From positions 199,127 to 263,126 of the forward strand of contig JAVHLI010000001.1 in the NCBI GenBank assembly GCA_031082185.1: DNA of 64,000 nt. The letters are read 5' to 3'. This DNA comes from a bacterium (lineage in GTDB: Bacteria; Sysuimicrobiota; Sysuimicrobiia; Sysuimicrobiales; Humicultoraceae). The position numbers and the translations under genes are program-made. Under the pieces are notes generated by a model that saw nothing but the letters and a program-made list of their open reading frames with translations, was not told the DNA's origin and searched no databases. Positions 591-15,694 of the stretch are shown piece by piece (position 1 is the first letter of the stretch; each line of letters starts with the position of its first letter).

Positions 591-608
591 GAACCCCGCA
601 GGCGAAGT

Positions 609-618: not shown

Positions 619-638
619 GTAGCGTAGAGGTGACAAGA

Positions 639-1430: not shown

Positions 1431-1703
1431 AAACGGCCTTCCTGGTCCGAACTCCCCCGTCCCCGTCCCTGGACCTCGTCCGCGCTTCGCCTTCGGCTAT
1501 CCAGATTGGGTGGCCCTGTAGATCTTGCTCCAGTGTCCAACGAGATGGACGATGACAGTCTGCTCAGGTCGCCGCCGAGAGGCTCAGGGGCAAGACAATC
1601 CCTCACCAGGCCCACCCGGCCCTCTTTGCAACTTCCTGCCGCAGGATAGCCGGGCAGGAAAGCGGAAACAACGTCCTGCCGAAGCACTCCCTGAGGAGAG
1701 AAG

Positions 1704-2441
1704 ATGAGCACCAGGACCGCAAGCACCGTTCTGCGCGGCCTTGCATACACCGCCGCCGTGGTGGCGATCATCGCAGCGGCCGCCCCCACCGCAGCCCCTC
1801 AACCCAGTCAGCCGTTCTCCGAGGACAACGCCAAGAACCTGATCCGGGGAGCGCTCCTGCAGTACTTCGACGCCGAGTCGGTCCTTGAGATCTCTGCCTC
1901 AGGTACGGTCCTGTTAGGCGATGTCCTTGTAATCGAGGACCTGCTGGTCGTAGGCAGGCCCGTACTGCTGCGCGGTGTCCGCGGAGAGGTACTGGTTCAA
2001 GCGGCCGGGCTTCATCTCGACATGCCGGCCCTGGCCGGTCGGCAGATCCGGGTCGTGATACTGGGGAAGGCGACCGTCGTGGGGAAGAGCACCGCGAGGG
2101 ATATCCAGGAAGGACTGGCCAGGACGTCGCCCAACATCCTCAGGCCGACGGTGAGGTTCCAGGTGGGTCAGTTTGAGGTGGCGGCGACGATCAGGCAGGA
2201 GGCGAAGCTCTATCCTGCTCTGGTGAGGGGGAACCTGACGGTCGAGCAGGAGCAGCGAGTGCGCGTGGTGGTCACCGAGGCGCAGGTTTTGGGCAGCGAC
2301 GTCCCCCGGGGCATGATTGAGAAGGAGCTGGCCAAGCTGAACCCCGTGTTGGACCTCTCGAAGTGGCCGTTCAACCTGCGCATCCAGCGGCTGGTGCTCC
2401 ACAACGACACGGTTGAGGTGCTGGCCGCGAGCGGGCAATAG
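1704..2441 (+). CDS. secreted/membrane-anchored hypothetical protein, DUF2993/LmeA-like
   Basis: N-terminal hydrophobic anchor (AYTAAVVAIIAAAAPTAAP), then repetitive beta-rich segments typical of DUF2993. The antisense ORF 1914-2501 was judged spurious. Confidence 0.35.
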   Translation: MSTRTASTVLRGLAYTAAVVAIIAAAAPTAAPQPSQPFSEDNAKNLIRGALLQYFDAESVLEISASGTVLLGDVLVIEDLLVVGRPVLLRGVRGEVLVQAAGLHLDMPALAGRQIRVVILGKATVVGKSTARDIQEGLARTSPNILRPTVRFQVGQFEVAATIRQEAKLYPALVRGNLTVEQEQRVRVVVTEAQVLGSDVPRGMIEKELAKLNPVLDLSKWPFNLRIQRLVLHNDTVEVLAASGQ

Positions 2442-2466: not shown

Positions 2467-3291
2467 CTACAGGTCCAGATCCGCGGGGTAGTCCTGCTCA
2501 CCCCGGTACTCGACGTTCTTGGAGACGATCGCCCGCAGGACCCGCTTGTCGTATCCGGCGCGCTCCAGGGATCGCAGCATGGACAGCGTGTCCTTCGGGA
2601 GGCACTTCCCAGAGAACCCGCGGCTGTCGCCCCACGAGGCGGTGTGCATGGGGCCCACGCGGGGGTCCAGCATCCACAGGTCCCTGGCTTCCCAGTACGG
2701 CACGCCCCACGCGGCGCACGCCTCCCGCATCTCGTTGGCGAACATGACCTTCCAGGCGATGAACTCGTTCTCGAACGCCTTCACCGCCTCGGCGATGCGG
2801 GCCGACGTGACGCGGTACTGCTTCATCGGGCCGGCGATGGGGGCGAATAGATCTACCACCCGCTCACAGTCCGCCGGATCTCCGCCGAAGATGTAGAAGG
2901 GGCACTCGATCTCGTCCCGCATGAAGCCGTACGGAACCCAGTACTGCGGCTCGCCCACGTACTCCGGGGAGAACACGATCGGCTTGCCCGTCTTCGCCTT
3001 AAGCTCGTCGGTCGTCCCGACCGGGACGGTTGAGCGGAGCAGTATCGTGCCGGCCTCGATCCATCCGACGGCCTCTTCCACAATCGTTGTATCGCACGAG
3101 CCATCCGCGCGCATGGGCGTGGGCACGCAGACGGCCACCAGGGCGCTTCCGTTGATGTCGTCCCGGCTACCGTGCCCATTCGGTGGATCGTAGATGGTCA
3201 CCTCATACCGGTGTCCGAAGAACGCCTCCATCGCCTGCCCGACGCGCCCGTAGCCTACGATGCCGACGCGAGATGTGCCGATCCGAGACAT
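2467..3291 (-). CDS. short UDP-glucose/GDP-mannose dehydrogenase-family protein (N-terminal NAD-binding + central catalytic domain only), copy 1
   Basis: GIVGYGRVGQA Rossmann motif, VCVPTP motif, catalytic-Cys motif GKCLPKD (cf. GGSCFPKD). Only 274 aa, so the UDP-binding C-terminal domain is absent. Paralog of 13903-14742. Confidence 0.5.
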   Translation of the reverse strand: MSRIGTSRVGIVGYGRVGQAMEAFFGHRYEVTIYDPPNGHGSRDDINGSALVAVCVPTPMRADGSCDTTIVEEAVGWIEAGTILLRSTVPVGTTDELKAKTGKPIVFSPEYVGEPQYWVPYGFMRDEIECPFYIFGGDPADCERVVDLFAPIAGPMKQYRVTSARIAEAVKAFENEFIAWKVMFANEMREACAAWGVPYWEARDLWMLDPRVGPMHTASWGDSRGFSGKCLPKDTLSMLRSLERAGYDKRVLRAIVSKNVEYRGEQDYPADLDL

Positions 3292-3390
3292 ATTCTCACC
3301 TCAGTCAGGTGTCCCTGGACACCTTCTCGGCTTCGCTGATGGTGCTGCTACTACCTGCGTTGCGATCGCGCAGCGGCCGCCTCCACGCTG
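2467..3390. repeat. direct repeat copy A (~0.9 kb: udg-like gene + ~100 bp upstream leader)
   Basis: By-eye alignment with 13903-14830 is roughly 85-90% identical. It extends past the start codon: cacctcag..ggacaccttctc.gcttcgctgat.gtg.tgctac. Confidence 0.7.
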
Positions 3391-3674
3391 GGGCCTTTGC
3401 CTCACTCATAATCGTGTATCGCGTGATCGAACTACTACTGACACCTGAGGCTCTCTTAGGGGGCAGACCACCGCAACCGAACGCAATTACGCCCCCGCCG
3501 GAGCTGCGGCGCAGATCCACTCCGCCGCACCCGCAAGGGAGTCGGCCGCGAAGTCGAACGTCTCGGGTCTTGGCTCGTCGTAACCATAGCAGGCAGCAAT
3601 TTCAACTTCATACTTGACGTACCTTTCAACCGACTAGTACTCTTACCAATGATAAGGCAAATTGGAGGCGAGAA

Positions 3675-3953
3675 ATGCGTACTTACGCTCGTACGACGAA
3701 GGCCAAGATAACCCTGACGCTGAGCTCTGATGTGGTATGTCAGCTCGACGCTCTGGCACGCGCGCCGCAATCTCGCTCTCGTAGCCATCTTGTGGAAGAG
3801 GCTCTGCGTCGGTGGCTTGACGAACGCGTCCAGGAGAATATCGAGCAGCAGACTGAGGAGTACTACGGCTCTCTATCGCCCGCCGAGCGCGAACAAGACA
3901 GAGAGTGGGCCGCACTCGCAGCCGAGGCAGCCCGACAACTGTGGGACAAGTAA
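3675..3953 (+). CDS. ribbon-helix-helix (CopG/MazE-like) antitoxin
   Basis: MRTYARTTKAKITLTLSSDVVCQLDALA...SRSHLVEEALRRWL. Precedes the MazF gene by 6 nt. Confidence 0.6.
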   Translation: MRTYARTTKAKITLTLSSDVVCQLDALARAPQSRSRSHLVEEALRRWLDERVQENIEQQTEEYYGSLSPAEREQDREWAALAAEAARQLWDK

Positions 3954-3959
3954 CGCTCC

Positions 3960-4307
3960 GTGTCGTATCCACGCCGAGGTGAGATCTACCTGGTCACCCT
4001 ACCCGGGCACCCTGCCGATCCTAAGGCGCGACCCGCCCTGATCGTGTCAATGGACGTCCGTAACCGCCTGGCGAATGATGTGATGGTGGTGCCGCTGTCC
4101 ACGACTCTCCGCGCGGCCCCGACCCACGTCGAACTGCCCGCAGGGGAAGGTGGCCTGCGGGAAACTTCGATGGCCAAGTGCGAGCAGGTAACCACCCTGG
4201 ATAAGTCGTTCCTGATTCGTGGCCCCTTCGCTGGAACCATCAGTCCCGCGCTCATGCGGGAAATCGAAAAAGCGATCCAGCGGGCTATTGGCATTCCCGT
4301 CGCGTGA
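3960..4307 (+). CDS. mazF: MazF/PemK-family endoribonuclease toxin
   Basis: RRGEIYLVTL.....KARPALIVSMDVRNRLANDVMVVPLST. Classic PemK/MazF N-terminal pattern. Confidence 0.7.
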   Translation: MSYPRRGEIYLVTLPGHPADPKARPALIVSMDVRNRLANDVMVVPLSTTLRAAPTHVELPAGEGGLRETSMAKCEQVTTLDKSFLIRGPFAGTISPALMREIEKAIQRAIGIPVA

Positions 4308-4392
4308 CCGGCGAAATCCGGCGGCATTGGGGTAGCCCTGAGGAGTAGTGCTTCTCTCCGGTGCGCCACTTGCTCACCACCTCCCGCCGGGT

Positions 4393-4803
4393 CTAAGCGA
4401 AGCTGCGCAGACCGAGGCGCAGGACGCGGCGTCACTCGGCGTGGTCGGAGACCAGAAAGGTCGCCGAGCGCCTGAGGCGGAGGAAGCGCGCCGCGGGCAC
4501 CGCCATGAACCTGGCGAGGAGGCGCTCGACCGCCGACTCGCTGATGCGCAGCGCGTCCATGAGCTGGTTGACAATGTGGACCACGTCGTACATGGCGTAC
4601 CCAAGGCTCTTGGCCGGGATGGCGCGGGGGTCGGCAAGGTTGATCGAGTCTATGGGATGGCGGGAAACCGGTACCGCGAAGCGGGTCTCCGTGACGATCT
4701 CCTCGTCGTCGTAGGCCAGGACCGTGGTGTGCCGGGTGCGCACGGTGTCGCCGTTGACCCCGTCCAGATCTATGCTGTAGGATTCATACAGGGTCATGTG
4801 CAC
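4393..4803 (-). pseudogene. partial, internally deleted copy of the YjbQ-like fusion gene at 8988-10358
   Basis: DNA at 4393-4790 matches 8990-9660, with two internal deletions bounded by short direct repeats (e.g. gggggtcggc). Translation matches the C-terminal 50 aa (..AIPAKSLGYAMYDVVHIVNQLMDALRISESAVERLLARFMAVPAARFLRL.RSATFLVSDHAE) and the ..MDLDGVNGDT.RTRHTTVLAYDDEE.. block. Confidence 0.7.
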
Positions 4804-4830
4804 ACGACACTGCAGAAGGGACGAGAGGCC

Positions 4831-5079
4831 ATGACAAAGCGCAGGGTGAACTTGACTCTGCCCGAGAACTTGTGGATCAATCTGCGCGCGCGCGTTCCCG
4901 AGCGCAAGATCAGCGAGTACGTCGCCGAGGCGACGGCGGCGCGGCTGGCCGAAGAGGAGAGGGCCATCCTAAGAGAGCGTCTCAAGGACCAGTACGTGGC
5001 GCGGGCGGCTCAAGACCACAAACTGGCCGAAGAGTTCTTCGCCGCCGAGCAGGAGACCACTGATCGGATCGGAGCCTGA
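4831..5079 (+). CDS. RHH antitoxin (MazE/CopG-like)
   Basis: MTKRRVNLTLPENLWINLRARVPERKISEYVAEATAARLAEEERAILRERL... Start computed from the ORF track (Met162 of ORF 4348-5079). The upstream part of that ORF is antisense to the pseudogene. Confidence 0.6.
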   Translation: MTKRRVNLTLPENLWINLRARVPERKISEYVAEATAARLAEEERAILRERLKDQYVARAAQDHKLAEEFFAAEQETTDRIGA

Positions 5080-5086
5080 AAGACCT

Positions 5087-5584
5087 GTGCGCACCTACAG
5101 GCGCGGCGACGTCTGGCTGGCCAACCTGGATCCGGTCATCGGCTCGGAGCAAGGAAAGACTCGCCCGGTTGTCATTGTCCAAAACGACGTGGCGAACGAG
5201 TACAGCCCGGCGGTCATCGTTGCGGCCGTGACCACTGTGCTCGGCCCCAAGGAATATCCCACGGAGGTGCGGGTGCGGGCCCCAGAGGGCGGATTGAAGA
5301 GGGATTCTGCGATCCTGCTCAACCAGATTCGCACCATTGACCGATTCGCGCGGCAAGCCCCGGACTTCAGGCCGGGGAAGGATAGCGCGAGGTGTGGTAC
5401 AATGTTCATGCGGCCAACGCCGCCTACCGCAGGGCATGCGGGAAGTAACGCCGGGGAGATACGAGCAGCCGATCAGGCACTCGGCCCAGGAACCCACCGA
5501 AGCGATCCCGCCAGGGATTGCCGTAGGAATCCCCCGGCTTCAGGTGGGGGAGGATGTCAAAAGCGGCGCATGGTCGAGCGCTGA
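5087..5584 (+). CDS. mazF: MazF/PemK-family toxin carrying a ~170-bp 3' insertion (C-terminally extended ORF)
   Basis: RRGDVWLANLDPVIGSEQGKTRPVVIVQNDVANEYSPAVIVAAVTTVLG...LLNQIRTIDRFAR. The ORF then reads through inserted DNA to 5584 instead of stopping at the TAG that follows DRFAR in the remnant at 45093. Confidence 0.65.
   Translation: MRTYRRGDVWLANLDPVIGSEQGKTRPVVIVQNDVANEYSPAVIVAAVTTVLGPKEYPTEVRVRAPEGGLKRDSAILLNQIRTIDRFARQAPDFRPGKDSARCGTMFMRPTPPTAGHAGSNAGEIRAADQALGPGTHRSDPARDCRRNPPASGGGGCQKRRMVER
5354..5523. repeat. ~170-bp insertion / repeat unit inside mazF 3' end (hairpin CCCCGGACTTCAGGCCGGGG + extended -10 TGgTACAAT)
   Basis: Flanks tgaccgattcgcgcgg | taggaatcccccggcttcaggtgggggaggatgtcaa are contiguous at 45093-45145 but separated by 170 bp here. 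The insert's 5' end mimics the hairpin that follows it. Confidence 0.55.
5395..5403 (+). promoter_or_regulatory. extended -10 element TGgTACAAT inside the insertion
   Basis: Sequence gtgTGgTACAATgttc, the same motif class as at 609-618. Confidence 0.3.
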
Positions 5585-5740
5585 GGAACTCTCGGCCTAG
5601 AGACGATGAAGAGGCTGGACGAAGTCCTGAAGATCAGCCTGGCGCTGGTACCGATCTGAGGGATTCCGGTCGCGCGCCGGCAGAGCGAGGAGATCCTCCG
5701 CGAGATCTTCGTCCGGAAGAGGACTTCCCCGTGAAGCGCA

Positions 5741-5778
5741 CCCTGGCCGACACCGGCCCGCTGGTGGCCTTGCCGTAG
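5741..5778 (+). pseudogene. remnant of a PIN-domain (VapC) N-terminus
   Basis: Translation VKRTLADTGPLVAL then stop. Resembles the conserved PIN start (..LDTNVLIAL..). Surrounded by other short decayed frames. Confidence 0.25.
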
Positions 5779-5838
5779 AGGCTGCCGGCGGACTCCGGGG
5801 ATGCGGTGCACTATCGCTGTGGAGCGGGCCGCGTTGGC

Positions 5839-6063
5839 TCATCCATCGGGATCCCCGGCGGCGCGCCACGCAGCGAGCGCTTCGCGGAGGGAGGCGGCGG
5901 GCCTTCCGGGCAGCGGGACGAGACGGGCCACAGGAGCGCCGTTGCGCTCGACGATGAAAGAATCCCCCCGGTAGCGCACTCTGCCCAGAGCATCGCCGAG
6001 CCTGCGGGCCAATTCGGTTGCAGAAATCCGGCGCTCCATATTCTGAATCATGCGTAATTCCAT
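5839..6063 (-). CDS. Phd/YefM-family antitoxin (apparently orphan)
   Basis: MELRMIQNMERRISATELARRLGDALGRVRYRGDSFIVERNGAPVARLVPLP... Start computed from the ORF track. No intact toxin downstream. Confidence 0.6.
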   Translation of the reverse strand: MELRMIQNMERRISATELARRLGDALGRVRYRGDSFIVERNGAPVARLVPLPGRPAASLREALAAWRAAGDPDG

Positions 6064-6128
6064 GCAAGCTGTAAAGCCCGGCGCGAACCGCGCCGCGCGG
6101 AGCTTCCGCCTGCGGAGGCTCTTCAGGA

Positions 6129-6320
6129 TCACGCCGCCGGGTGGTCGAGCGGCCGATCGGCCTGGCCCTGGCGCCTGAGCAGCAGCGCGCCCAGCCCCAT
6201 GGTGACGGCGAGGATCCAGGCCGTGGACGCGACGACCCCGGCCATCCGCTGCTGCACCCTCCTCACGCTGAAGAAGAGGAAGTTCACCGTCATCGGCAGC
6301 GTGCTCGCGGCCAGCAACAA
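6129..6320 (-). pseudogene. fragment of a Wzx/MOP-flippase-like C-terminus (copy 1)
   Basis: MTVNFLFFSVRRVQQRMAGVV.ST. DNA block ctcctcacgctgaagaagaggaagttcaccgtcatcggcagc is identical at 6262-6303 and 7330-7371. Confidence 0.4.
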
Positions 6321-6511
6321 CAGGATGGACCGGGCGCTGTCGAGAGCGTATCAGACAAGCCGCGCCTCGTCGTGAGAGCCGTGCGCAAACAGCGACATCG
6401 AGGTCGTCAGTTGACCACCAGCAGCGGCAGCAGGAACACTGGTGCGCCCCGCAGGATCGCAGCCACGTATGGAGATAGCAGACTGGCCCGCTTGATGCGG
6501 TAGCACCCCCG

Positions 6512-6877
6512 GTGCTACCCTCAGCGCGTGGGAAGCGCGAGACATGGGGTCTTCGCCGCACGGAGGTGAGCGGGCACCTGTCACATTTCGAAGGACCAAT
6601 TCGTTGGACCCGTCATGCCCAGCACGACCGCCTCCCTAGGCTTGTCGAAACGGGCAGGGTGCGTGATCTGGCAGATGTTGAGGAGATCCTGCGATCCCCT
6701 GAACGCATCGTGCAGGCGAAGATGGGGCGCCGAGAGGCCCAGCAGCGACGTGGCGGCGGCCTCCTGCGCATTGTCTTCGTGGAGGAGAAGGGTAGCCGTG
6801 TTATCATTACGATGAACTGGACGACAAAGGTCGATAGGTACTGGAAAGGGAGTGCCATAGATGAAGGTCACCTATGA
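6512..6877 (+). CDS. DUF4258-family putative toxin
   Basis: HAQHDRLPRLVETGRVRDLADVEEIL.....VVFVEEKGSRVIITM. Matches the DUF4258 H-A..R...R.I....V..vL.......VITvy pattern. Confidence 0.5.
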   Translation: MLPSARGKRETWGLRRTEVSGHLSHFEGPIRWTRHAQHDRLPRLVETGRVRDLADVEEILRSPERIVQAKMGRREAQQRRGGGLLRIVFVEEKGSRVIITMNWTTKVDRYWKGSAIDEGHL

Positions 6878-7091
6878 TCCGGAAGCGGATGTTCTGTACA
6901 TCCTCCTGCGCGAGGAGGCACGCGAGGCGGACACCGAGGAGATCCGTGGGGGGGTGACCGCAGCGTTCGACCAGCATGGACGCCTCATCTCGCTCGAGTA
7001 CATTGGCGCTGCAGCAGACGGCTTGGTCGTGGACGATACCATCAGGGTATCCGTGGTCAACTATCCCGGGCGTGCAAAGACGAGAGCGTAA
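6861..7091 (+). CDS. DUF2283-family protein (partner of DUF4258)
   Basis: MKVTYDPEADVLYILLREEA. Classic DUF2283 N-terminus. Overlaps the upstream gene by 17 nt. Confidence 0.55.
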   Translation: MKVTYDPEADVLYILLREEAREADTEEIRGGVTAAFDQHGRLISLEYIGAAADGLVVDDTIRVSVVNYPGRAKTRA

Positions 7092-7143
7092 CTCCACTCA
7101 TCAAGCAAGAAGGATGCCGGCCGGTGCGCTCGTCCCCATGGGC

Positions 7144-7365
7144 CTAGAGCAGCCGGCGATCGAAGGCAAGACGGGCAAGCAGTACAAGCGCAACTGAACT
7201 TTGTGCCGCGAACCACCCCAGACCCGCCCCCAACAGCCCCATGCGCGGGAGGAGCAGCACGCTCAGCCCCAGTGTCACGACCAGGATACAGAGGGTGCTG
7301 CCCACGACCCCGGCCATCTTCTGCTGCACCCTCCTCACGCTGAAGAAGAGGAAGTTCACCGTCAT
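7144..7365 (-). pseudogene. fragment of a Wzx/MOP-flippase-like C-terminus (copy 2)
   Basis: MTVNFLFFSVRRVQQKMAGVVGSTLCILVVTLGL. Duplicate of the 6129-6320 fragment. Confidence 0.4.
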
Positions 7366-7430
7366 CGGCAGCGCTTGAATTGGGGTGACGCGCGCGGGCC
7401 GGTCCGGCCGCTACGGTCCGGCCGGCAGGG

Positions 7431-7832
7431 CTACGGAATCAGCTTGATGTCCGGGAACACGGCGCGAAAGACGGCGGGGTCCAGGGTGAGCACCGCCAAG
7501 CCGTGGTGCTCGGCATGGGCGGCGATCAGGAAATCGCCCACGATGCGGCGTGGCAGGGCACCGTCGCGCCGCTTGCGGGCGTACTCACCGAATGCGCGCC
7601 CGGCGCGCTCCCACACTTCAGGCGGCATGGACCACAGCACTTCGATCTCGGCCCGCTCCAGGAAGGTCCGCAGCCCCTCCCAGCTCCGCGAGGCGACAAG
7701 CTCCGCGTAGACCACCGGACAGATGACCGGCGGCTGCGATCCCGCCACAGACAGCCTCCGCCTGGCCTCTTCGTGCAGGGCGTCCCGGGAGTCGAACGCC
7801 GCGAGGATGGCGCTGGTGTCAAGGCTGATCAT
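7431..7832 (-). CDS. vapC: PIN-domain toxin VapC
   Basis: MISLDTSAILAAFDSRDALHEEARRRL....PVVYAELVA...D. Start from Met22 of ORF 7431-7895, overlapping the vapB end. Confidence 0.65.
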   Translation of the reverse strand: MISLDTSAILAAFDSRDALHEEARRRLSVAGSQPPVICPVVYAELVASRSWEGLRTFLERAEIEVLWSMPPEVWERAGRAFGEYARKRRDGALPRRIVGDFLIAAHAEHHGLAVLTLDPAVFRAVFPDIKLIP

Positions 7833-8079
7833 CGCCCCACCGCAGTCTCCGCACGTGGCCTGTCGCGTCTCCGCCCGTCTCCTCGGAAAGAGCACGGAAG
7901 TCGAACTCTTGCAGCAGCGCCTCGATCACCTGCCCTATGTCGGGCCTGACTTTCCGGAGCTCGATGTGTTCACCGGCAGTCGTCACCTCCAGACGGTCGC
8001 CCGCCTTGATGCCGAGGGCCCGCCGGACCTGCGCGGGCAGCGTCAGCTGAAACTTGCGGCTTACGCGGGAGAATGCCAT
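7819..8079 (-). CDS. vapB: AbrB/MazE/SpoVT-fold antitoxin VapB
   Basis: MAFSRVSRKFQLTLPAQVRRALGIKAGDRLEVTTAGEHIELRKV. Swapped-hairpin antitoxin motif. Confidence 0.6.
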   Translation of the reverse strand: MAFSRVSRKFQLTLPAQVRRALGIKAGDRLEVTTAGEHIELRKVRPDIGQVIEALLQEFDFRALSEETGGDATGHVRRLRWGDDQP

Positions 8080-8094
8080 CGCTTTACCAGCTTA

Positions 8095-8137
8095 CCAAGC
8101 GCCGTTCGGCAAAGCAAGGCTTGCTTTACATGCTTGG
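8095..8137. promoter_or_regulatory. imperfect palindrome in divergent promoter region (candidate VapB operator)
   Basis: Sequence ccaagc..ggcAAAGCAAggcTTGCTTTacat.gcttgg. A 7-bp inverted repeat with a 3-nt spacer, nested in an outer ccaagc/gcttgg repeat. Lies between divergent vapB and the 8215 antitoxin gene. Confidence 0.35.
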
Positions 8138-8214
8138 TGGCCCCCGCATTCGCAGCGTGCCATATCTGTGCAAAATGTACATCTTGTGCTATCATGCCTG
8201 TGAGGTGATCGGAC

Positions 8215-8637
8215 GTGCTGGTCCCCACGAGGTTCTCAGAAGCCCGCAGCCGGTTCAGCCGGTTGTTCGATGAGGCCGTGGAAGAGCTGCGGCCGGTGTT
8301 GGTCCGCCGAGGAGCCCGACAAGAAGCGGTGCTCGTGAGCCGCGAGAATCTCGATGCGCTTCTGCAGTCGTTCACCCTGCGGCCCCAGGTCCTGCACGAA
8401 GAAGATGGCTCGGTGACGATAACGGTGGACGAATTGGACTGGGCCGTCAACGCTGCGTCAGTTGAGGAGGCAGTGAGCGCCCTCGTCTCCGACCTGCGCC
8501 AGTACGCGGAGGACTATCTTGAGCGGGCATCGCTGTTTCTACGCGCGCCCAACCGCCGTTCTCATTTCCCCCATGTGCTCAAGATTGTGCTCGCTCGCGA
8601 TGAAGAAGAGGTCCGCCACGGGCTGCTGGGCCTGTAG
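8215..8637 (+). CDS. antitoxin: Phd/YefM-like N-terminus with HicB-like (UPF0150-like) C-terminal extension
   Basis: VPTRFSEARSRFSRLFDEAVEELRPVLVRRGARQEAVLVSRENLDALLQ (Phd pattern), then ..DGSVTITVDELDWAVNAASVEEAVSALVSDLRQYAEDYLE. Confidence 0.45.
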   Translation: MLVPTRFSEARSRFSRLFDEAVEELRPVLVRRGARQEAVLVSRENLDALLQSFTLRPQVLHEEDGSVTITVDELDWAVNAASVEEAVSALVSDLRQYAEDYLERASLFLRAPNRRSHFPHVLKIVLARDEEEVRHGLLGL

Positions 8638-8864
8638 TGCCTCCCACGTTTCGTGACCTCAAGCGGTTCTGCGAGCGCGATCGTTGGGCGCTCATCCGGT
8701 CAACGGACCATTGGTACTACGAGAAAGTGCTCCCGGACGGCCGCATACTCCGCACCAAGGTGAGCCGCGCGCTCCACCGGGAGATTCCCGGGCATCTGTG
8801 GAAGAGCATCCTCAAGCATCAAATCCAGATCCTCGAAGAGGAGTTCTGGAGGAAGATCCGGTAG
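8637..8864 (+). CDS. hicA: HicA/YcfA-family mRNA-interferase toxin
   Basis: 75 aa. ..RDRWALIRSTDHWYYEKVLPDGRILRTKVS....IPGHLWKSILKHQIQI. Fits the HicA G.H..y ... tvP.H ... IlKq pattern. Start overlaps the upstream stop. Confidence 0.5.
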   Translation: MPPTFRDLKRFCERDRWALIRSTDHWYYEKVLPDGRILRTKVSRALHREIPGHLWKSILKHQIQILEEEFWRKIR

Positions 8865-8987
8865 CCTCAACCCCCGCCTCGTAGAGTACGAGGCTCCTCT
8901 TCTCATCAGCCTTCACGCTGCCGGGCGCAGGACATCCTGCTCGGCCAGCCGCGCCAGGACCCTGGTGAGGTCTTTGCGGCTCGAGTA

Positions 8988-10358
8988 CTAAGTGAAGCTG
9001 CGCAGACCGAGGCGCAGGACGCGGCGTCGCTCGGCGCTTGCCGACCACTGGAGGAGGATCGGACTCTGGTAGCGCCCCTGGACGAGGGCCCCGCGCCCGG
9101 GCTCGGCGTGGTCGGAGACCAGAAAGGTCGCCGAGCGCTTGAGGCGGAGGAAGCGCGCCGCGGGCACCGCCATGAACCTGGCGAGGAGGCGCTCGACCGC
9201 CGACTCGCTGATGCGCAGCGCGTCCATGAGCTGGTTGACAATGTGGACCACGTCGTACATGGCGTACCCAAGGCTCTTGGCCGGGATGGCGCGGGGGTCG
9301 GCGAGGGCGCGCTTGCCGGCGCGCATCGCGAACTTGAGCGGGTCGCGCAGGACCTCGGCCAGGTCGTGCCGCATCAGGAGCGTCTCGTGCTCGTTGACCG
9401 TGAGCCCCGCGTTGTGCTCCTCAGGGTCGAGGGTGATGTCCACCCGCCCCTTGGCGACCCCGTGGCGGGCGACGAGATCCTCGATGAACGGGACCAGCCC
9501 GACCCGGGGGTCGGCGAGGTTGATCGAGTCGATGGGATGGCGGGAAACCGGTACCGCGAAGCGGGTCTCCGTGACGGTCTCCTCGTCGTCGTAGGCCAGG
9601 ACCGTGGTGTGCCGGGTGCGCGCGGTGTCGCCGTTGACCCCGTCCAGATCCATGAAGTAGACGGGCTCGCCGGGGCGGTTGATGTAGGTCACGCAGTTGA
9701 GCAGCCCGGAGCCGATGAAGGCGAGGTGGGAGTCGGCGTTCCTGGGCTCCACGCGGCGCTGCTCCTCGGAGAGTTCGGTGCGCAGGTCGAGTCGGTCGTG
9801 GCGGTAGTCGGCGTCGGGCGGGAACAGCGCCCGGAACGCCGCGATGAACGGGTCGAGTTGCTCGCGGCGGTGCTGCAGTCGCCTCGACAGGCTCTGCTCC
9901 AGGTAGCCCGCGGTGGTGTGATAGGAGCAGTACAGGGCCCGGCGGTAGGGCGTGAGGGCATCGCCGTGCGCCTGGCGCACCCTCTCGGTGACGTCGATGG
10001 CGTCGTAGCGAGTGCGCGGCCGCAGCGTGAGGTCGAGCTGGAGCGGGGCCGTGCGGCCCCGCCCACGCCGGCGGCGCACCTCACCGGTCTGACTCACCCC
10101 GACCTCCCCTCGGTCCCCGGCCTCGTGCCCCGGCCAAGCCCCCGCGGCGGCCGGAAGGCGCCCCGGGAGTGGATGTCGCGACTCGAGCGCAGCTTTCCCC
10201 CGCGTGCAAACGATAGACGGAGTCGGGCCGAAAGTCAAAGGCGTGCGGCCGAGGCGATGCTGGCAGTACTGCGCGAGGATGGCGACCCACTGGCACCGGA
10301 AGACGCTACCGCTGGCTATTCGGGGCAGATTCGCCTGAGACTCCCAAGGTCGCTGCAC
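8988..10358 (-). CDS. hypothetical fusion protein: YjbQ/UPF0047-like domain + unknown C-terminal (HTH-like) domain. True start probably internal.
   Basis: PLQLDLTLRPRTRYDAIDVTERV..YCSYHTTAGYL...NADSHLAFIGSGLL..YFMDLDGVNGDTARTRHTTVL echoes YjbQ motifs (HTTAG, D..SH....G..L). The C-terminal ~200 aa (..LRISESAVERLLARFM..) is unassigned. The N-terminal ~90 codons of the ORF abut the IS481 end and are probably non-coding. Confidence 0.4.
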   Translation of the reverse strand: MQRPWESQANLPRIASGSVFRCQWVAILAQYCQHRLGRTPLTFGPTPSIVCTRGKAALESRHPLPGRLPAAAGAWPGHEAGDRGEVGVSQTGEVRRRRGRGRTAPLQLDLTLRPRTRYDAIDVTERVRQAHGDALTPYRRALYCSYHTTAGYLEQSLSRRLQHRREQLDPFIAAFRALFPPDADYRHDRLDLRTELSEEQRRVEPRNADSHLAFIGSGLLNCVTYINRPGEPVYFMDLDGVNGDTARTRHTTVLAYDDEETVTETRFAVPVSRHPIDSINLADPRVGLVPFIEDLVARHGVAKGRVDITLDPEEHNAGLTVNEHETLLMRHDLAEVLRDPLKFAMRAGKRALADPRAIPAKSLGYAMYDVVHIVNQLMDALRISESAVERLLARFMAVPAARFLRLKRSATFLVSDHAEPGRGALVQGRYQSPILLQWSASAERRRVLRLGLRSFT

Positions 10359-10399
10359 GAGCGGGGGTGCAGCAGCGCCAGGTCGGGCTGAGGCTCGGG

Positions 10400-11798
10400 T
10401 GTACTGGTCCAGTAGATGCGAAACACTTTCCTCCTCTCATTGGCCGTGGTGTTGGGTTTGCCACTGGGTTAGGTACTCCTGCGGGGTCCGGTAGCCCAGA
10501 GCTTGGTGGGGCCGGACGGTGTTGTAGGTCCGCTCCCATTCTTGGAGCAGGGCGTTGTGCTCCGCCAGCGGGTCTGGCACTTCTACCAGGTCATAAAACT
10601 CTTCCTGGTGCGTCCGCTGCGCCCGCTCCACGTGCCCGTTCAGCTTCGGGCTCCGCGGCGGCAACACGAACAGCCGAATCCCCATCCGCTCGCAGGCCGC
10701 CTCGAACACCGCCTTGAACTCACTGCCCCCGTCGATCTGAATCGCCCGCACCGGGAACCCAAACCTGGGAAACGCCTCCCGGAGCACCCGCTCCGCTGCC
10801 CGGCTGCTCCCTCGATCATGCGCCGCGACCACGCCCTTACGGCTCACCACATCGCAAGCGCTGAAGTGCACCCGCCTCAGCCCCGGCCGCACCTCTACCG
10901 GCGTCGTATCGATCTGCACCAGATCCCCGGGGGAGTGCACCACGTACTCCCAGGGCTTCCGCTGCGCGTAGCGACGCCTCTGGCGCCTCCGGTGACGCTT
11001 GGCCTGCGCCGCCCGCACCACCGCCGGTTCCCGCAGCTGCCCCAACGCCCGCAAGCGTCTCAGCGTCCGTCCCACCGTCGAGGCTGAGACCTTCCATCCC
11101 TCCCGAGCCAGCAGCACCGCCAGCTTTACCTTCCCCCACCGCGGATATGCCTCCCGCAGCGCCCGGATCCGCCCCACCAGCAGGACCGAGGTCTGCGGCT
11201 GCCTCACACGCCGGGGCCGCCGCGTGCGACGATCATCCTCCAAACTGCTCAGCCGCCGGGGATTGTAGCGCTTCCTCCACCGGTAGAACGTCGCCGAGCT
11301 GATCCCAAAGCGCCGGCAGGTCAGCCGCGCGTTGGGCCCATGCGCCTCGTAGAACTCCATCCACCGCAACCGCTGCCGCGCCTCGCGGGTCAGCGGCGCC
11401 GACATCCGAATCCGTAACCTCTGGGGAAGCAGGCTCTGCTCGATCATCATGCGGCCAGTATAGCCGCCTCCAAGGGGCCGGAAGCCCCCCTTCAACCGGT
11501 ACGGCATCCTCAGTCAGGGTGTTTCGGATCTATCTGAACCAGGGCATGCGCTCCGCGCGGACAGAGCGAAGGGTTAGCGTGCTGCCGCAGCACCTCGGCT
11601 CGGCACGCACGGCCTCCTTGACCACACGCCCACGGATGCGCGGGTCGACCGCCCGGCAGCGCTCGAGTTGGGATGGGTGAATCTGCAGCCTGATCTCCTG
11701 AAGCCGCCACCACATCGTAGCCGAGTTTCTGGAGCGCGTCCGCGACCGCGCGTTCACCTCCAGGAAGGAAAGTGTTTCGTATCTACTGGACCAGTACA
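10400..11798 (-). mobile_element. IS481-family insertion sequence (~1.4 kb) with 33-bp terminal inverted repeats
   Basis: Left inverted repeat at 10400-10432 is tgtactggtccagtagatgcgaaacactttcct. The right end 11766-11798 is its reverse complement with 1 mismatch. TG...CA termini. Single DDE transposase ORF inside. Confidence 0.8.
10437..11507 (-). CDS. IS481-family DDE transposase (HTH + rve integrase core)
   Basis: ..FGISSATFYRWRKRY.. HTH. Integrase-core motifs DLVQIDTTP...HFSACDVVSRKGV...IQIDGGSEF...NGHVER...RPHQALGYRTP. Confidence 0.85.
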   Translation of the reverse strand: MPYRLKGGFRPLGGGYTGRMMIEQSLLPQRLRIRMSAPLTREARQRLRWMEFYEAHGPNARLTCRRFGISSATFYRWRKRYNPRRLSSLEDDRRTRRPRRVRQPQTSVLLVGRIRALREAYPRWGKVKLAVLLAREGWKVSASTVGRTLRRLRALGQLREPAVVRAAQAKRHRRRQRRRYAQRKPWEYVVHSPGDLVQIDTTPVEVRPGLRRVHFSACDVVSRKGVVAAHDRGSSRAAERVLREAFPRFGFPVRAIQIDGGSEFKAVFEAACERMGIRLFVLPPRSPKLNGHVERAQRTHQEEFYDLVEVPDPLAEHNALLQEWERTYNTVRPHQALGYRTPQEYLTQWQTQHHGQ

Positions 11799-11853
11799 TT
11801 CGCTTGACAACACGGATAGGGTGGCTACAATGGCTACTACGGAGGGTTCCGCC

Positions 11854-12135
11854 ATGGGAAGCGTTGGGGTCAAGGAACTGAAGAACCGCCTCACCCATTA
11901 CCTTCGCAGGACCAAGCAAGGCGAGGAAGTCATCGTCACCGAGCGGGGAAGGCCGATCGCGCTCATCCAGCCGATTCGGTCTGCGGAGCGAATCGTTAGT
12001 CTGGAGGCGCGGCTTGCAAGGCTGGCCGCCCGGGGATTCCTGACCCTCCCTACCCACAAGCCCTTGAGCAGAGTGCGGCCAGTGGAGGCCTCCGGCCCGC
12101 CTGTCTCAAGGATCATCCTGGAAGATCGCCGATGA
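11854..12135 (+). CDS. Phd/YefM-family antitoxin
   Basis: MGSVGVKELKNRLTHYLRRTKQGEEVIVTERGRPIALIQPI. Alternative in-frame ATG at 11830. TACAAT box at 11826-11831 upstream. Confidence 0.65.
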   Translation: MGSVGVKELKNRLTHYLRRTKQGEEVIVTERGRPIALIQPIRSAERIVSLEARLARLAARGFLTLPTHKPLSRVRPVEASGPPVSRIILEDRR

Positions 12136-12581
12136 ACTATCTGGATACCAGCGCGCTCATCAAGCGCTTCGTCGCCGAAAAGGGCTCGCCGCTGGTGAGC
12201 GCCATTGTGACGCGCAAGGGGCCCGTCGCGACGGCCAAGATCGCCTATGCCGAAGTCTATGCAGGGCTGACACGGAAGCGCCGGGATGGCCAGCTCTCCG
12301 AGGGTCGGTACGTCGTGGCGTGCAGGCAGTTCGAGCGCGATTGGCAGGCCTACATTCGGGTGGACTTGTGGGATGAGGTCCTCCTGCTGGCCCGCGACCT
12401 GATTCAACGGCACCCGCTCAGGGGTTTCGACGCCATCCACCTGGCTTCTGCCATGGGCTTGAGGAGTGCGCTCGGCGAAGACATCACTTTTGCTGCGGCA
12501 GACGAGCGGTTGCTCCGGGCGGCTGGAGCCGAGGGCCTCCATGTGCTCGACGTCGAGAAAGCCTCCGGCCTGCACACCTGA
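12132..12581 (+). CDS. vapC: PIN-domain toxin VapC
   Basis: MNYLDTSALIKRFVAEKGS...AYAEVYAGL...FDAIHLASA. 4-nt ATGA overlap with the antitoxin. Confidence 0.7.
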   Translation: MNYLDTSALIKRFVAEKGSPLVSAIVTRKGPVATAKIAYAEVYAGLTRKRRDGQLSEGRYVVACRQFERDWQAYIRVDLWDEVLLLARDLIQRHPLRGFDAIHLASAMGLRSALGEDITFAAADERLLRAAGAEGLHVLDVEKASGLHT

Positions 12582-12651
12582 TCGAGGCTGTTCCTTCCAC
12601 CGCCTCTGAGCGGTCCGGGTCGCCGTGACAACCCATGTGCCGATCTACTCG

Positions 12652-12885
12652 CTATAGAACTCCCTTCGTAGCTCGTCCTCCGCAATGAACCGGCACGCTT
12701 CCCGTGGTGGTTACCCGTCGCAGCTTTACATGACTGCCGCGCTGGGAGTGAACCATGAAGCCAAACCTGGCCAGGATAGCGACGACCTGGTCGCCCGATA
12801 GCCGCCTAAGCCTGGGCAAAGTCAGCGGTGTCCTCACCCTCCAGATGCAGGGTGACAGCCTCCTGAAGGTTCGCAAGGGTTTCAT
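12652..12885 (-). CDS. hicA: HicA-like toxin, possibly degenerate (aberrant C-terminus; true start probably internal TTG/CTG)
   Basis: ..LSGDQVVAILARFGFMVHSQRGSHVKLRR...VPVH fits the HicA G-S-H pattern. Overlaps the hicB end. Confidence 0.4.
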   Translation of the reverse strand: MKPLRTFRRLSPCIWRVRTPLTLPRLRRLSGDQVVAILARFGFMVHSQRGSHVKLRRVTTTGSVPVHCGGRATKGVL

Positions 12886-12988
12886 CCAGCGTTTTCCCCT
12901 GAGTCACCACGGCAATCTCCACGCACTCGGCTACATAGTAGTGCTCGCCTTTTCGCACTACAGCCTTCACATTCTGTTGGAGCCTCAT
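12806..12988 (-). CDS. hicB: HicB-like antitoxin (UPF0150 fold)
   Basis: MRLQQNVKAVVRKGEHYYVAECVEIAVVTQGKTLDETLANLQEAVTLHLE. Start from Met31 of ORF 12806-13078. Confidence 0.55.
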   Translation of the reverse strand: MRLQQNVKAVVRKGEHYYVAECVEIAVVTQGKTLDETLANLQEAVTLHLEGEDTADFAQA

Positions 12989-13495
12989 ACGTTCCCCTCC
13001 TGGCAGCCGGTTGGGAAGTCCTTCACCTTCATGGCGGCCTTCTTGCGGATAAGCCTTCTCCTTGTGAAGCGGTATCATTATCCCACAACCCTGTCGTCTC
13101 GTCTCACATCAGCGGCTGACACCGCGCCCTTGGCCGCCGTAGATCAGAAAGGCGATTGGAGTTGACCCGGTTTCGAGGACACCGGCGCGGACGTATAGGG
13201 GCACCTTCACCTCGCGGTCGGCGTCGGCTGAAATACGCACTCAATATCCTTGAGCAGCCACCGCGCCCAGCAAGGCGTCCGTGGCGCCGATGTTGAGGAC
13301 GATGCCCAGGACGGTGGGTGCCGTCTCCGGGGGTCGCCCGCTTACCGACCTGCGCTGTTCAGTCTTTGGGATGGGTCCAAATCGGTCCCGGTCGTACGCC
13401 ACGGGAACGGAACTGGTTCCCCAGCGTCGATGCGCGCGACGACCATGCGGTGCCCAAGCGGCGCCAGCACTTCGGCGAACTCCCTGGCGAGTGCC

Positions 13496-13876
13496 TCAAG
13501 GTCGGCGAGGTCGGCCTTGGCGAGCCTTACGGCGTCTCCATGCCAGGACCACTACCCATGCGGCCAGGACACCAAGCGCGTTCATGAGGAGATCTACGAG
13601 TTCAGCGCTCCGGTAGGAGATGAACCACTGCGCACCTTCAAGCGCGGCGCCGTAGGTCCAGGCCAGTCCCATGGCGCGGGCGGCCGGCAGTTGGGTCTGG
13701 AGGAGAACTGTCAGAATCCCGCTGGCGGCGATATGACCCCCGGGCCCATCGAGAGGGCGAAGGGAACCAAGCCTGGGTGACGGCACCTGGGGCAGGACCG
13801 CCCCGACGACCATTACGACCATCCAGGCCGCCGTGGCCACCCTCCACCAAAAGGTCCGGGTTGAGCGTAGATGCAC
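13496..13876 (-). CDS. VanZ-like membrane protein
   Basis: Multi-TM protein with C-terminal EGAQWFISYRSAELVDLLMNALGVLAAW, matching the VanZ E..Q.f.pgR....D...N..G pattern. Confidence 0.5.
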   Translation of the reverse strand: MHLRSTRTFWWRVATAAWMVVMVVGAVLPQVPSPRLGSLRPLDGPGGHIAASGILTVLLQTQLPAARAMGLAWTYGAALEGAQWFISYRSAELVDLLMNALGVLAAWVVVLAWRRRKARQGRPRRP

Positions 13877-13902
13877 TGCTTTGGGTCTTCCCTACTTGAG
13901 AC

Positions 13903-14742
13903 TCAGCGTTCCGGTGTCTCCACGTCGAGATCCGCAGGGTAGTCCTGCTCGCCCCGATACTCGATGTTCTTGGAGACAATAGCCCTGAGGACCCGCTTGT
14001 CGTATCCGGCATGCTCCAGGGATCGCAACAGCGACAACGTGTCCTTAGGGAGGCACTTCCCAAAGAACCCACGGCTGTTGCCCCACGAGGCGGTGTGCAT
14101 GGGACCCACGCGGGGGTCCAGCGTCCACAGATCCCGGGTTTCCCAGTACGGCACGCCCCATGCGGCGCACGCCTCCCGCATCTCGTTGGCAAACATGACT
14201 TTCCACGCGATGAACTCGTTCTCGAACGCCTTCACCGCCTCAGCGACGCTGGCCGACGTCACGCGGTACTGCTTCATGGGACCGGCTATGGGGGCATACA
14301 GATCAATCACGCGCTCGCAGTCTGCCGCGTCGCCACCGAAGATGTAGAAGGGGCATTCGATCTCGTCCCGCATGAAGCCGTACGGTACCCAGTAGTGCGG
14401 CTCGCCCACGTACTCGGGGGAGAACACTATCGACTTACCCGTCTCGGCCTTGAGCCTATCGGTTGTCCCGACGGGGATGGTCGAGCGGATCAGGATCGTG
14501 TCGGCCCCGATCCATCCGACGGCCTCTTCAGCAATTGATGTATCGCACGAGCCGTCCGGGCGCATGGGCGTGGGCACGCAGACCGCAACCATAGCACACT
14601 CGTTGATGTCGTTCCGGCTGCTGTGCCCCTTCGGTGGGTCGTAGATGGTCACCTCATACCGACGCCCGAAGAACGCCTCCATCGCCTGCCCGACGCGCCC
14701 ATACCCTACGATGCCGATGCGAGCCATGCTGACCCGAGACAC
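13903..14742 (-). CDS. short UDP-glucose/GDP-mannose dehydrogenase-family protein, copy 2 (native polysaccharide-operon context)
   Basis: 279 aa. Same motifs as 2467-3291 (GIVGYGRVGQA, VCVPTP, GKCLPKD). Downstream of the PglC-like transferase gene. Confidence 0.5.
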   Translation of the reverse strand: MSRVSMARIGIVGYGRVGQAMEAFFGRRYEVTIYDPPKGHSSRNDINECAMVAVCVPTPMRPDGSCDTSIAEEAVGWIGADTILIRSTIPVGTTDRLKAETGKSIVFSPEYVGEPHYWVPYGFMRDEIECPFYIFGGDAADCERVIDLYAPIAGPMKQYRVTSASVAEAVKAFENEFIAWKVMFANEMREACAAWGVPYWETRDLWTLDPRVGPMHTASWGNSRGFFGKCLPKDTLSLLRSLEHAGYDKRVLRAIVSKNIEYRGEQDYPADLDVETPER

Positions 14743-14830
14743 ATTCCACCTCAGATGGGGGTTGTTGGATACCTTCTCTGCTTCGCTGATCGTGATGCTA
14801 CCAGATGTGCTGCTATCGCGTAGGCCTTCC
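13903..14830. repeat. direct repeat copy B (~0.9 kb)
   Basis: Aligns with 2467-3390, including the ~100 bp upstream leader. Confidence 0.7.
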
Positions 14831-14917
14831 GCAGCGTCTTGTTCGTATGCCGTCTTGTGAGCAACTGGGTGTTGTGTCGATCGATGAAGGTCTGGACCGC
14901 CGTGCGCGGCCCGTTGC

Positions 14918-15604: not shown

Positions 15605-15694
15605 CGGGTTCCCGGCCGTCTTCCAGGCCTTTCGCGCGAGTCCTGCTCCGCGCGCGCACTCATGTTGCGGTGGATGTGGGGCTGTGGGGCGCTG

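Follow-up and report, generated by a model that had tools for sequence, protein, structure and literature searches.

Two copies of a short UDP-sugar-dehydrogenase-like gene (udg) lie in the same orientation on either side of a run of toxin-antitoxin (TA) genes in a 64,000-nucleotide (nt) stretch of a bacterium of the phylum Sysuimicrobiota (GenBank assembly GCA_031082185.1, contig JAVHLI010000001.1, positions 199,127 to 263,126; hereafter the window). This arrangement raises the question of whether the two copies, A and B, are the trace of one old integrative event that duplicated the 3' region of a target gene, or belong to a recombination hot spot that collects addiction modules, both of which had been proposed in a preliminary description of the window. 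We consider that the locus is probably a high-turnover TA hot spot, built up piecemeal at the distal end of a bacillosamine-type glycan operon, together with a divergent udg paralogue that was placed there separately. Part of this explanation is that the copies are two intact paralogues of a module of ~1 kb, consisting of a leader and the short dehydrogenase gene, and not the scar of one integration. The parts on which the argument turns are the following.

2467-3291, minus strand: copy A, short NDP-sugar-dehydrogenase-like gene of 274 amino acids (aa), ending DLDL-stop (open reading frame (ORF), translation, Pfam UDPG_MGDP_dh central and N domains)
3292-3373, minus strand: leader of copy A, ~82 nt (alignments)
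3374-13523, no strand assigned: variable TA-rich interval of 10.15 kb, from the VanZ 3' junction to leader A (comparison with relatives)
13496-13876, minus strand: VanZ-like gene, 126 aa (Pfam VanZ)
13903-14742, minus strand: copy B, 279 aa, ending DLDVETPER-stop (ORF, alignments)
14743-14917, minus strand: leader of copy B (14743 to ~14830) and an 87-nt spacer up to the PglC stop codon (alignments)

The evidence came mainly from relatives which, like the window, are all metagenome-derived. They are metagenomic or metagenome-assembled genome (MAG) contigs of 1-9 kb, some at ~5x coverage, and are called R1 (contigs L001 and L015), R2 (MAG Yes70-20, L003 and L008), R3 (L049), R4 (L050) and R5 (L054), with L051 and L052 as further contigs. 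The interval from VanZ to the leader had no content in R1 (0 bp; VanZ 312-755, udg 765-1601), comprised ~0.4 kb of unrelated DNA in R2, extended over 3.2 kb in R3 with a small-ORF fragment, a Phd and PIN pair, a large ORF and a MazF/RHH pair, and reached 10.15 kb in the window with a TA set different from those of the relatives. R2 also carried Uma2'-HicBA-large ORF-PHD-like TA in the order of the window, without the IS481-type insertion sequence (IS) and without the Phd/PIN pair at 11845-12581. In R3 and R4 the large ORF was contiguous with MazF/RHH and the leader, at which point the window held an additional 4.6 kb (4.2 kb of TA genes and a partial duplicate of the large ORF), and R5 ran VanZ-Uma2'-HicB'-large ORF without copy B. 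Content also differed 3' of the A-type copy, with Uma2-VapBC(-Phd/PIN) in R1 and R4, Phd/PIN-LmeA in R3 and LmeA alone in the window. The PIN gene that R3 retains next to Phd was absent from the window, where the Phd gene is orphaned and tblastn with that PIN returned nothing. Identity between the window and its relatives ranged from 82% to 99.5% block by block, a signature of frequent exchange, and sample ERZ27300255 alone contained two different udg contexts, making the locus polymorphic in the sampled population.

Clustering, differing content and toxin erosion, the features of high-turnover TA spots in the sense of Belot et al. 2026 (PMC13617665), were thus all found at this locus. Intervals of 0, ~0.4, 3.2 and 10.15 kb, differing TA sets, toxin loss, microhomology deletions and nested partial duplications agreed with the proposed hot spot for addiction modules. 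On the suggested check of whether relatives lack the segment and carry a single udg gene, VanZ and udg are adjacent in R1, but the segment did not behave as one unit, its size and content varying among relatives. The TA-packed segment does lie between the copies as described, but VanZ (13496-13876) intervenes and separates copy B from the variable DNA, which is confined to 3374-13523.

Self-comparison of the window by BLAST gave a direct repeat at 2467-3373 and 13918-14823 with 86.8% identity over 907 nt (E = 0), within the 85-90% that had been estimated by eye for two same-orientation copies. MAFFT extended weak similarity to ~3378/14830 at one end, and at the other it ceased only a few bases from 2467/13918. 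The two minus-strand genes have intact ORFs, and the repeat spans the complete gene and ~82-90 nt 5' of the start codon, in keeping with the ~100 bp of shared upstream leader given before. Identity was 87.9% in the coding part versus 78-80% across the leader, and similarity ended 5 codons ahead of the ancestral stop, where the two C termini diverge. The copy A protein was an exact match to MDQ7839588.1 (RDU83_01015), from a MAG, and the copy B protein to MDQ7839607.1 (RDU83_01110), from the same MAG contig of 451,537 bp. Copy A faces an LmeA-like gene (1704-2441) in convergent orientation and lacks a same-strand neighbour, while copy B lies 3' of PglD-like, DegT/PglE-like, PglF-like and PglC-like genes and 5' of the VanZ-like gene, all on the minus strand; Pfam gene calls therefore supported the earlier placement of B in a polysaccharide operon and of A on its own.

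Pfam assigned to both copies a UDPG_MGDP_dh central domain and a partial N domain without the C-terminal domain, and both scored under the NCBIfam cut-offs for genuine UDP-sugar dehydrogenases (TIGR03026, 115.8 bits against a cut-off of 189.8, with profile positions 73-294 of 413 matched). They thus have neither the three domains nor the above-threshold score of a bona fide UDP-glucose/GDP-mannose 6-dehydrogenase. Since ~270 aa is the usual length in a large family of homologues without the C domain (1124 matches at E<=1e-10), the copies are complete genes of a short family and not a duplicated 3' region or a truncated udg. This short UDPG_MGDP_dh-like family (~270 aa) occurs across Chloroflexota, Patescibacteria and others, and its proteins are mostly given the putative label UDP-glucose 6-dehydrogenase by their sources despite scoring below the curated cut-offs.

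In R1 the counterpart of leader A is the tail of the VanZ ORF together with the udg ribosome-binding site, the VanZ Pfam domain being complete before that point. A conserved leader of ~75-85 nt accompanied the short-dehydrogenase gene in every context compared and is therefore part of the gene module rather than an integration scar. Identity confined to the coding sequence had been put forward as the sign of simple paralogy; it does reach into the leader, yet the leader goes with the gene everywhere. That the shared leader contains a structured RNA or a regulatory element was also considered and rejected, as the RNAalifold covariation term was positive (unfavourable) with one compensatory pair, and neither a sigma-70-like promoter nor a terminator was found in the leader.

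Seven copies from other assemblies were 93-95% identical at the nucleotide level to A and among themselves and 87-90% identical to B, and B formed the outgroup to A and all seven. No other B-type sequence occurred in the 90%-identity protein cluster of nine members, leaving B found only in this genome. The two copies are not each other's closest relatives, as a recent in-situ duplication would make them, because A is closer to its orthologues than to B. Over 273 shared codons, nonsynonymous (dN) and synonymous (dS) divergence between A and B were 0.063 and 0.41; with the resulting dN/dS of 0.15, both copies are under purifying selection. Between A and its orthologues, dS was 0.16-0.20 with a similar dN/dS, which suggests that B either branched off at roughly twice the age of the strain divergence or derives from a more distant lineage. 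On these comparisons, A is the conserved, orthologous copy shared with all sampled relatives, probably the resident one, and the operon-embedded B is the odd one out. As B is the outgroup, the repeats did not arise from one target at one insertion in this lineage.

Presence and absence of copy B pointed in the same direction. R5 was colinear with the window from 17984 to 14932 (PglE, PglF and PglC; 91.9% identity over 3.1 kb) and resumed 20 nt on at 13884, in VanZ. The intervening 1,047-bp segment (13885-14931; spacer, leader B, copy B and its tail) was absent from both R1 and R5, in which PglC is directly followed by VanZ with the same PglC/VanZ junction sequence. Because R5 lacks B and carries the start of the same TA stretch, copy B and the TA-rich interval are separable events. 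At the edges of the 1,047-bp segment (13885-13905 and 14905-14931) we observed an imperfect 7-nt repeat, TAAGGGA/TAGGGAA, where R1 and R5 have a single TAGGAAG or GAGGAAG; the repeat may be a target duplication or due to chance.

The junction sequences recorded a further change next to VanZ. In R1, VanZ ends ...GGCATGGAGAC and continues with CTGGAAGGCC..., the start of the leader. In the window, R3 and R5, GGCATGGAGAC is instead followed by (A/G)CCG(G/T)AAGG..., the continuation of a udg tail, which also follows ...GTGG(A/G)GAC in the udg 3' tail of R4 and of copy B. In R5 the post-VanZ sequence continues into the 5' end of Uma2, just like the udg tail in R1 and R4, and alignment of the junctions from the window, R1, R3, R4 and R5 placed the VanZ 3' end as fused, from 13524 downward, to sequence that follows the udg tail in other genomes. 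The simplest reading is that an ancestor shared by the window, R3 and R5 lost the leader and udg by deletion between two 7-nt TGGAGAC microhomologies; given this deletion, the 126-aa VanZ ORF of the window would be a fusion of VanZ with a udg tail. That tail is missing from copy A and from the copies in R2 (L003), R3 and L051, and from its absence we infer a 3' breakpoint in copy A.

Three comparisons around these junctions returned nothing further. Apart from its first ~45 nt and the Uma2 stub, the DNA that follows VanZ (13523-13232) showed no homology to the sequence following udg in R1. A VanZ remnant 5' of leader A was rejected, its local alignment score at 3374-3700 being within the shuffled range and tblastn being empty. 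The 87-nt spacer 5' of leader B gave no score above shuffles against the udg 3' end, VanZ or Uma2, and was thus unsupported as a relic of any of these; its sole match was the equivalent position in R2.

In the history that we propose, small type II TA modules and one IS481 element would have been added piecemeal between VanZ and leader A, at least once as a 4.6-kb block that brought a partial duplicate of the large-ORF 3' end. Erosion would have accompanied this growth, with loss of a PIN gene leaving an orphan Phd, truncation of MazF and HicA, and reduction of Uma2 to a stub. The original leader-plus-udg unit beside VanZ would have been deleted via the 7-nt TGGAGAC microhomology, and the divergent second gene copy would incidentally have created the large direct repeat around the hot spot. 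This order of events is inferred, and the modules are presumed to be active and addictive.

The content of the interval was established by six-frame Pfam scans of 3301-8300, 8101-9099 and 11451-13949 and from the ORFs between, with NCBIfam support. Eight TA loci were found in the 10.15 kb, namely seven two-gene modules and one orphan Phd antitoxin, where at least eight modules had been counted before; the remainder of that inventory (TA modules, an IS481 element, an orphan antitoxin and gene fragments) was essentially right, "TA" referring there to toxin-antitoxin and not to A+T, as the G+C content (GC) is ~65% throughout.

3675-4307, plus strand: TA 1, RHH antitoxin (3675-3953) and MazF/PemK toxin (3960-4307) (Pfam RHH_1, PemK_toxin)
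4393-4803, minus strand: truncated copy of the large-ORF 3' part with internal deletions (96-99% identity to 8988-9660, translation)
4831-5584, plus strand: TA 2, RHH-like antitoxin (4831-5079, by eye only) and MazF-like toxin (5087-5584) (Pfam, NCBIfam, translation)
5839-6042, minus strand: orphan Phd-family antitoxin (Pfam PhdYeFM, TIGR01552)
6129-7365 including flanking ORFs, no single strand: TA 3, DUF4258-like (6512-6877, plus strand, by eye) and DUF2283 (6861-7091, plus strand) (Pfam DUF2283)
6129-6320 and 7144-7365, both minus strand: small hydrophobic ORFs flanking TA 3, two diverged copies (131-nt repeat, 84% identity)
7431-8079, minus strand: TA 4, VapB of AbrB/MazE fold (7819-8079) and VapC, PIN (~7431-7826) (Pfam MazE_antitoxin, PIN)
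8215-8864, plus strand: TA 5, PHD_like antitoxin (8215-8637) and a 75-aa toxin-like ORF (8637-8864) (Pfam PHD_like E=7e-35)
8988-10358, minus strand: large ORF of unassigned family, ~370 aa from the likely GTG start (ORF, translation, relatives)
10400-11798, minus strand: IS481-family insertion sequence with a 356-aa transposase (10437-11507) (33-nt terminal inverted repeats; Pfam rve, rve_3, HTH_32)
11845-12581, plus strand: TA 6, Phd antitoxin (~11845-12135) and PIN toxin (12132-12581) (Pfam)
12652-12988, minus strand: TA 7, HicB-like antitoxin (~12806-12988) and C-terminally short HicA toxin (12652 to ~12810) (Pfam HicA_toxin, weak DUF7387)
13173-13231, minus strand: stub of a Uma2-family gene, 59 nt (blastn, tblastn)

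The pairs have the predicted make-up of type II TA genes, with an antitoxin fold adjacent to or overlapping a known toxin family. Both partners had Pfam matches in five pairs (RHH_1/PemK, MazE-AbrB/PIN, Phd/PIN, DUF7387 (weak)/HicA and, outside the interval, DUF433/DUF5615), and three more combine one partner with a family match and one assigned by eye, in addition to the lone Phd. The putative partners at 4831-5079, 6512-6877 and 8637-8864 had no family match in Pfam or NCBIfam and were assigned to TA modules by position and by reading the sequence. TA 1 is a conserved neighbour of leader A in R3 and R4 by synteny, and TA 5 was also found in R2 at 92.6% identity. The MazF-like toxin of TA 2 matched profile positions 1-83 of 109 and was divergent beyond, so it is probably eroded. 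Uma2, a stub in the window, is full-length directly 3' of udg in R1 and R4. No family match was found for the small hydrophobic ORFs at 6129-6320 and 7144-7365; the ORF begins MTVNFLFFSVRRVQQ..., one copy has a G+C content at third codon positions (GC3) of 0.98, and R3 keeps only a 48-nt piece.

The insertion sequence, whose assignment to IS481 rests on its domain pattern (rve, rve_3, HTH_32 and HTH_28), has 33-nt inverted repeats complementary at 32/33 positions and was absent from R2, R3 and R5. No target-site duplication was found at its flanks (CTCGGG on one side, TTCGCT on the other). These flanks are not contiguous in the relatives, which hints at an IS-associated rearrangement instead of a simple insertion. 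The neighbouring large ORF had no Pfam or NCBIfam family, its only weak match being a YjbQ/UPF0047-like N-terminus (YjbQ-family structure, E=0.057), and was 99.5% identical to R2 and 96.5% to R3. Its GC3 is 0.90, its 99.5% identity to the R2 MAG stands against 82-93% in neighbouring blocks, and it has a partial duplicate in the window; it appears to behave like recently exchanged or selfish DNA. Single and undivided in R3 and R4, the large ORF has a divided partial second copy in the window. The interval as a whole showed three layers of nested direct repeats, with a 131-nt repeat enclosing DUF4258/DUF2283, the large-ORF repeat enclosing 4.2 kb and the udg repeat outermost, a pattern suggestive of duplicative insertion.

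The locus lacked the marks of an integrated element. No tRNA or tmRNA gene was found in the 64-kb window, six-frame Pfam scans of the interval detected no integrase or recombinase beyond the IS481-type DDE transposase, and self-BLAST and a repeat search found no short att repeats, the sole end-to-end repeat being the 907-bp, 86.8% gene repeat. The second IS copy that a composite transposon would require is not present in the window. Pfam scans gave no match to IntI, and a repeat search and self-BLAST, without a dedicated search for weakly conserved attC, found no short repeat family between the modules. Presence or absence as a unit with constant boundaries was not seen among the relatives compared. 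Composition was not distinct from that of the host either, as GC was 0.650 in the interval and 0.651 elsewhere in the window and the tetranucleotide correlation of 0.96-0.97 resembled that of the flanks; the comparison of the island with its flanks in GC and tetranucleotides thus revealed no contrast (tetranucleotide r ~0.97). The locus is consequently not a site-specific integrative island, a composite transposon or an integron array, since it fails the tests that define them. An integration duplicating the 3' region of the target gene was further disfavoured by the repetition of the whole gene with its leader, by the position of VanZ between B and the variable DNA, by the absence of B at PglC/VanZ in two relatives and by the outgroup position of B. 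The glycan-cluster core at 17.5-35 kb, by comparison, had a GC of 0.60-0.63 and a tetranucleotide correlation of 0.87-0.93, below the rest of the window, and it is this core, not the TA interval, that is compositionally foreign.

Several points weigh against a piecemeal hot spot with a separately placed paralogue. Duplication, deletion and insertion cannot be put into one exact order, and the source of B could be an ancient paralogue lost elsewhere or an acquisition from an unsampled lineage. The nested direct repeats around TA DNA fit single-crossover insertion of circular DNA just as well. The two ends of the region were not found on a single molecule in any relative, and assemblies may be chimeric at repeats. 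Four TA components are by-eye assignments, and the activity of the TA modules is predicted from sequence. The arrangement may also have arisen in two other ways, by tandem duplication of leader-udg-tail-Uma2 and later microhomology deletion and accretion of TA genes, or by single-crossover insertions of circular DNA from related strains.

Of these, the first survived better, though we regard it as unlikely. An ancient tandem duplication of the VanZ tail and udg (with or without Uma2) would have arisen by unequal crossing-over at TGGAGAC and been followed by differential deletion and TA accretion, the intervening DNA being kept because loss of TA modules would be lethal. The end of VanZ and the udg tail each contain TGGAGAC, and of the two reciprocal products the deletion was observed; both leaders start at the same point relative to VanZ, and Uma2 stubs follow VanZ where full Uma2 follows udg in R4 and R1. 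R2 has three copies, two of them decayed, with udg-tail/VanZ-start junctions like that of the window, and the dS of 0.41 places the split before the strain divergence. However, such a duplication would lead one to expect B-type copies in relatives, of which there were none among the nine cluster members, and the spacer 5' of B has no similarity to the udg 3' end, VanZ or Uma2. The elements run udg, large ORF, large-ORF fragment, udg, a nested and not an alternating arrangement for which a single duplication of a larger unit is insufficient, and according to published data TA systems do not preserve their neighbourhoods over the long term (PMC13617665).

More doubtful is a Campbell-type event, in which circular DNA from a related strain, carrying leader and udg, VanZ and TA genes, integrated by one homologous crossover in the resident udg to yield two hybrid copies. 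The geometry fits, with the upstream side of B (PglC, spacer) and the downstream side of A (DLDL-stop, LmeA, left flank) resident and the B tail, VanZ, the TA genes and the A leader as would-be incoming DNA, and the partial large-ORF duplication that encloses 4.2 kb of TA DNA, where R3 and R4 have one undivided ORF, has exactly the form left by a single crossover. Yet the empty site that this predicts (PglC-spacer-udg-left flank without VanZ) was found in no relative, both informative ones having PglC-VanZ, and the 12% divergence between copies strongly hinders homologous crossover. A clean switch from donor to recipient inside the gene would also be expected. At the sites that differ between A and B, relatives agreed with A along the entire gene with scattered exceptions and no single switch point, on a reading of the site pattern and not a formal gene-conversion test. 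Finally, the VanZ-Uma2'-HicB'-large ORF order without B in R5 makes the incoming block and B separable.

We give a very low probability to the idea that the ~1-kb unit of leader and short dehydrogenase could itself move as a cassette whose 5' boundary is fixed at TGGAGAC, ~85 nt 5' of the start. It is suggested by the occurrence of the unit in at least five upstream contexts, by three copies in one MAG and by the clean 1,047-bp insertion with its imperfect TAAGGGA/TAGGGAA repeat. If true, a dedicated, unrecognised mechanism would move the unit, and perhaps TA pairs too, and the locus would be a cassette array without a recombinase or with a novel one, not a passive junkyard. Least credible of all is an assembly artefact, in which the MAG contig would merge haplotypes of two co-existing strains so that the copies and part of the island were never on one chromosome: the window does come from a MAG and the locus is polymorphic, with two udg contexts in ERZ27300255, but assemblers are not confused by 87%-identical copies, every comparable junction recurs independently (udg-tail/VanZ in R2, VanZ/tail' in R3 and R5, large ORF/PHD-like TA in R2), and no repeat lies at a plausible chimeric join.

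The flanks of the locus comprise further TA genes on one side of the repeats and the bacillosamine-type gene set upstream of copy B (14918-19604, minus strand) on the other.

1-2441, plus strand: left flank with two DUF433/DUF5615 TA pairs (2-590, 609-1430) and the LmeA-like gene (1704-2441) (Pfam)
14918-15604, minus strand: PglC-like gene (Pfam Bac_transf)
15695-17563, minus strand: PglF-like gene (Pfam Polysacc_synt_2)
17604-18725, minus strand: DegT/PglE-like gene (Pfam DegT_DnrJ_EryC1)
18756-19604, minus strand: PglD-like gene (Pfam PglD_N and Hexapep)

TA genes also lie outside the repeats, at 2-1430 and at 43.4-46.1 kb. The latter cluster (43445-46065), on the far side of the glycan genes, includes MazF, DUF433/DUF5615, a DUF2283 fragment and a FitA-like RHH/PIN pair. 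Within it, 45150-45320 is 96.5% identical to 6885-7055 in inverted orientation and adjoins 45109-45149, which is 97.6% identical to 5520-5560; such matches would imply recent exchange or inversion between the two TA clusters. In R1 (L001 131-301 / L015 2253-2423), the last 117 nt of PglC are joined to a 67-nt MazF fragment 98.5% identical to window positions 43557-43623, and because of this fusion the R1 glycan operon upstream of VanZ is broken. The R2 MAG ("bacterium isolate Yes70-20") has its three short-dehydrogenase copies at L003 4121-4945 and L008 488-1126 and 4749-5111; two are decayed via internal deletions, and the intact one lies 3' of a different glycan operon (long UDP-sugar dehydrogenase, GT4/WecA-like gene, epimerase). 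The only Rfam match in the window was a c-di-GMP-I-GGC riboswitch aptamer (RF03167) at 58219-58296 on the plus strand, with 60.2 bits against a gathering score of 59.

Chromosomal type II TA systems in Photorhabdus occur in small clusters ("spots"), alone or with transposases, and show high turnover; they are lost by deletion or by pseudogenisation of the toxin, and their neighbourhoods are not conserved in the long term (PMC13617665). The present locus resembles these spots in combining several unrelated type II TA modules within a small region, the company of a transposase, no defence systems, an orphan antitoxin and content that varies among close relatives. It differs in lying at the end of a bacillosamine-type glycan operon, between two diverged dehydrogenase-like copies, in an uncultured bacterium whose modules are known through their sequences only. 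Stabilisation of repeat-flanked DNA by a TA system has been documented for SGI1 with sgiAT (PMC5006074), and here, too, TA genes lie within DNA flanked by direct repeats, such that loss of the segment would remove antitoxins; the TA genes may in this way slow loss of the interval by recombination between the 87%-identical copies A and B. SGI1-type islands, however, encode an integrase, an excisionase and transfer functions and have short, identical att repeats at the end of a defined target gene. None of these was found here, and the present repeats are 907 bp long, differ by 13% and do not lie at the edge of the variable DNA.

Vibrio superintegrons are sedentary chromosomal cassette arrays that carry TA cassettes and gain and lose them rapidly. 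The locus resembles them in its extended series of small gene pairs, which are mostly promoter-proximal, are often TA modules and come and go quickly, but neither an IntI-type integrase nor a repeated attC-like element was found by Pfam scans and self-BLAST, and the modules here are on both strands. Paralogy at the variable ends of glycan clusters is a further parallel, with two intact, selected genes for a sugar-nucleotide enzyme, one in the operon and one outside, and a compositionally atypical cluster core; in contrast to such cases, the copies here include a conserved 75-85-nt leader and are separated by selfish DNA rather than glycan genes.

The locus is thus a fresh example of a kind already known, the chromosomal TA hot spot, rather than a mobile element of a new sort. 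Direct repeats that are large and diverged need not signal an integrated element when they enclose a TA stretch, and for annotation the region should not be called a genomic island or prophage-like element, nor is the operon location of copy B ground for assuming that it is the original gene. The comparison offers a junction-by-junction view of the growth and decay of a TA hot spot in an uncultured lineage. From the junctions, a microhomology deletion appears to have removed the dehydrogenase-like gene that belonged to the glycan operon, which now seems to carry a divergent replacement just upstream of VanZ; if true, this change in the operon would be a loss-and-replacement event within a surface-glycan pathway.

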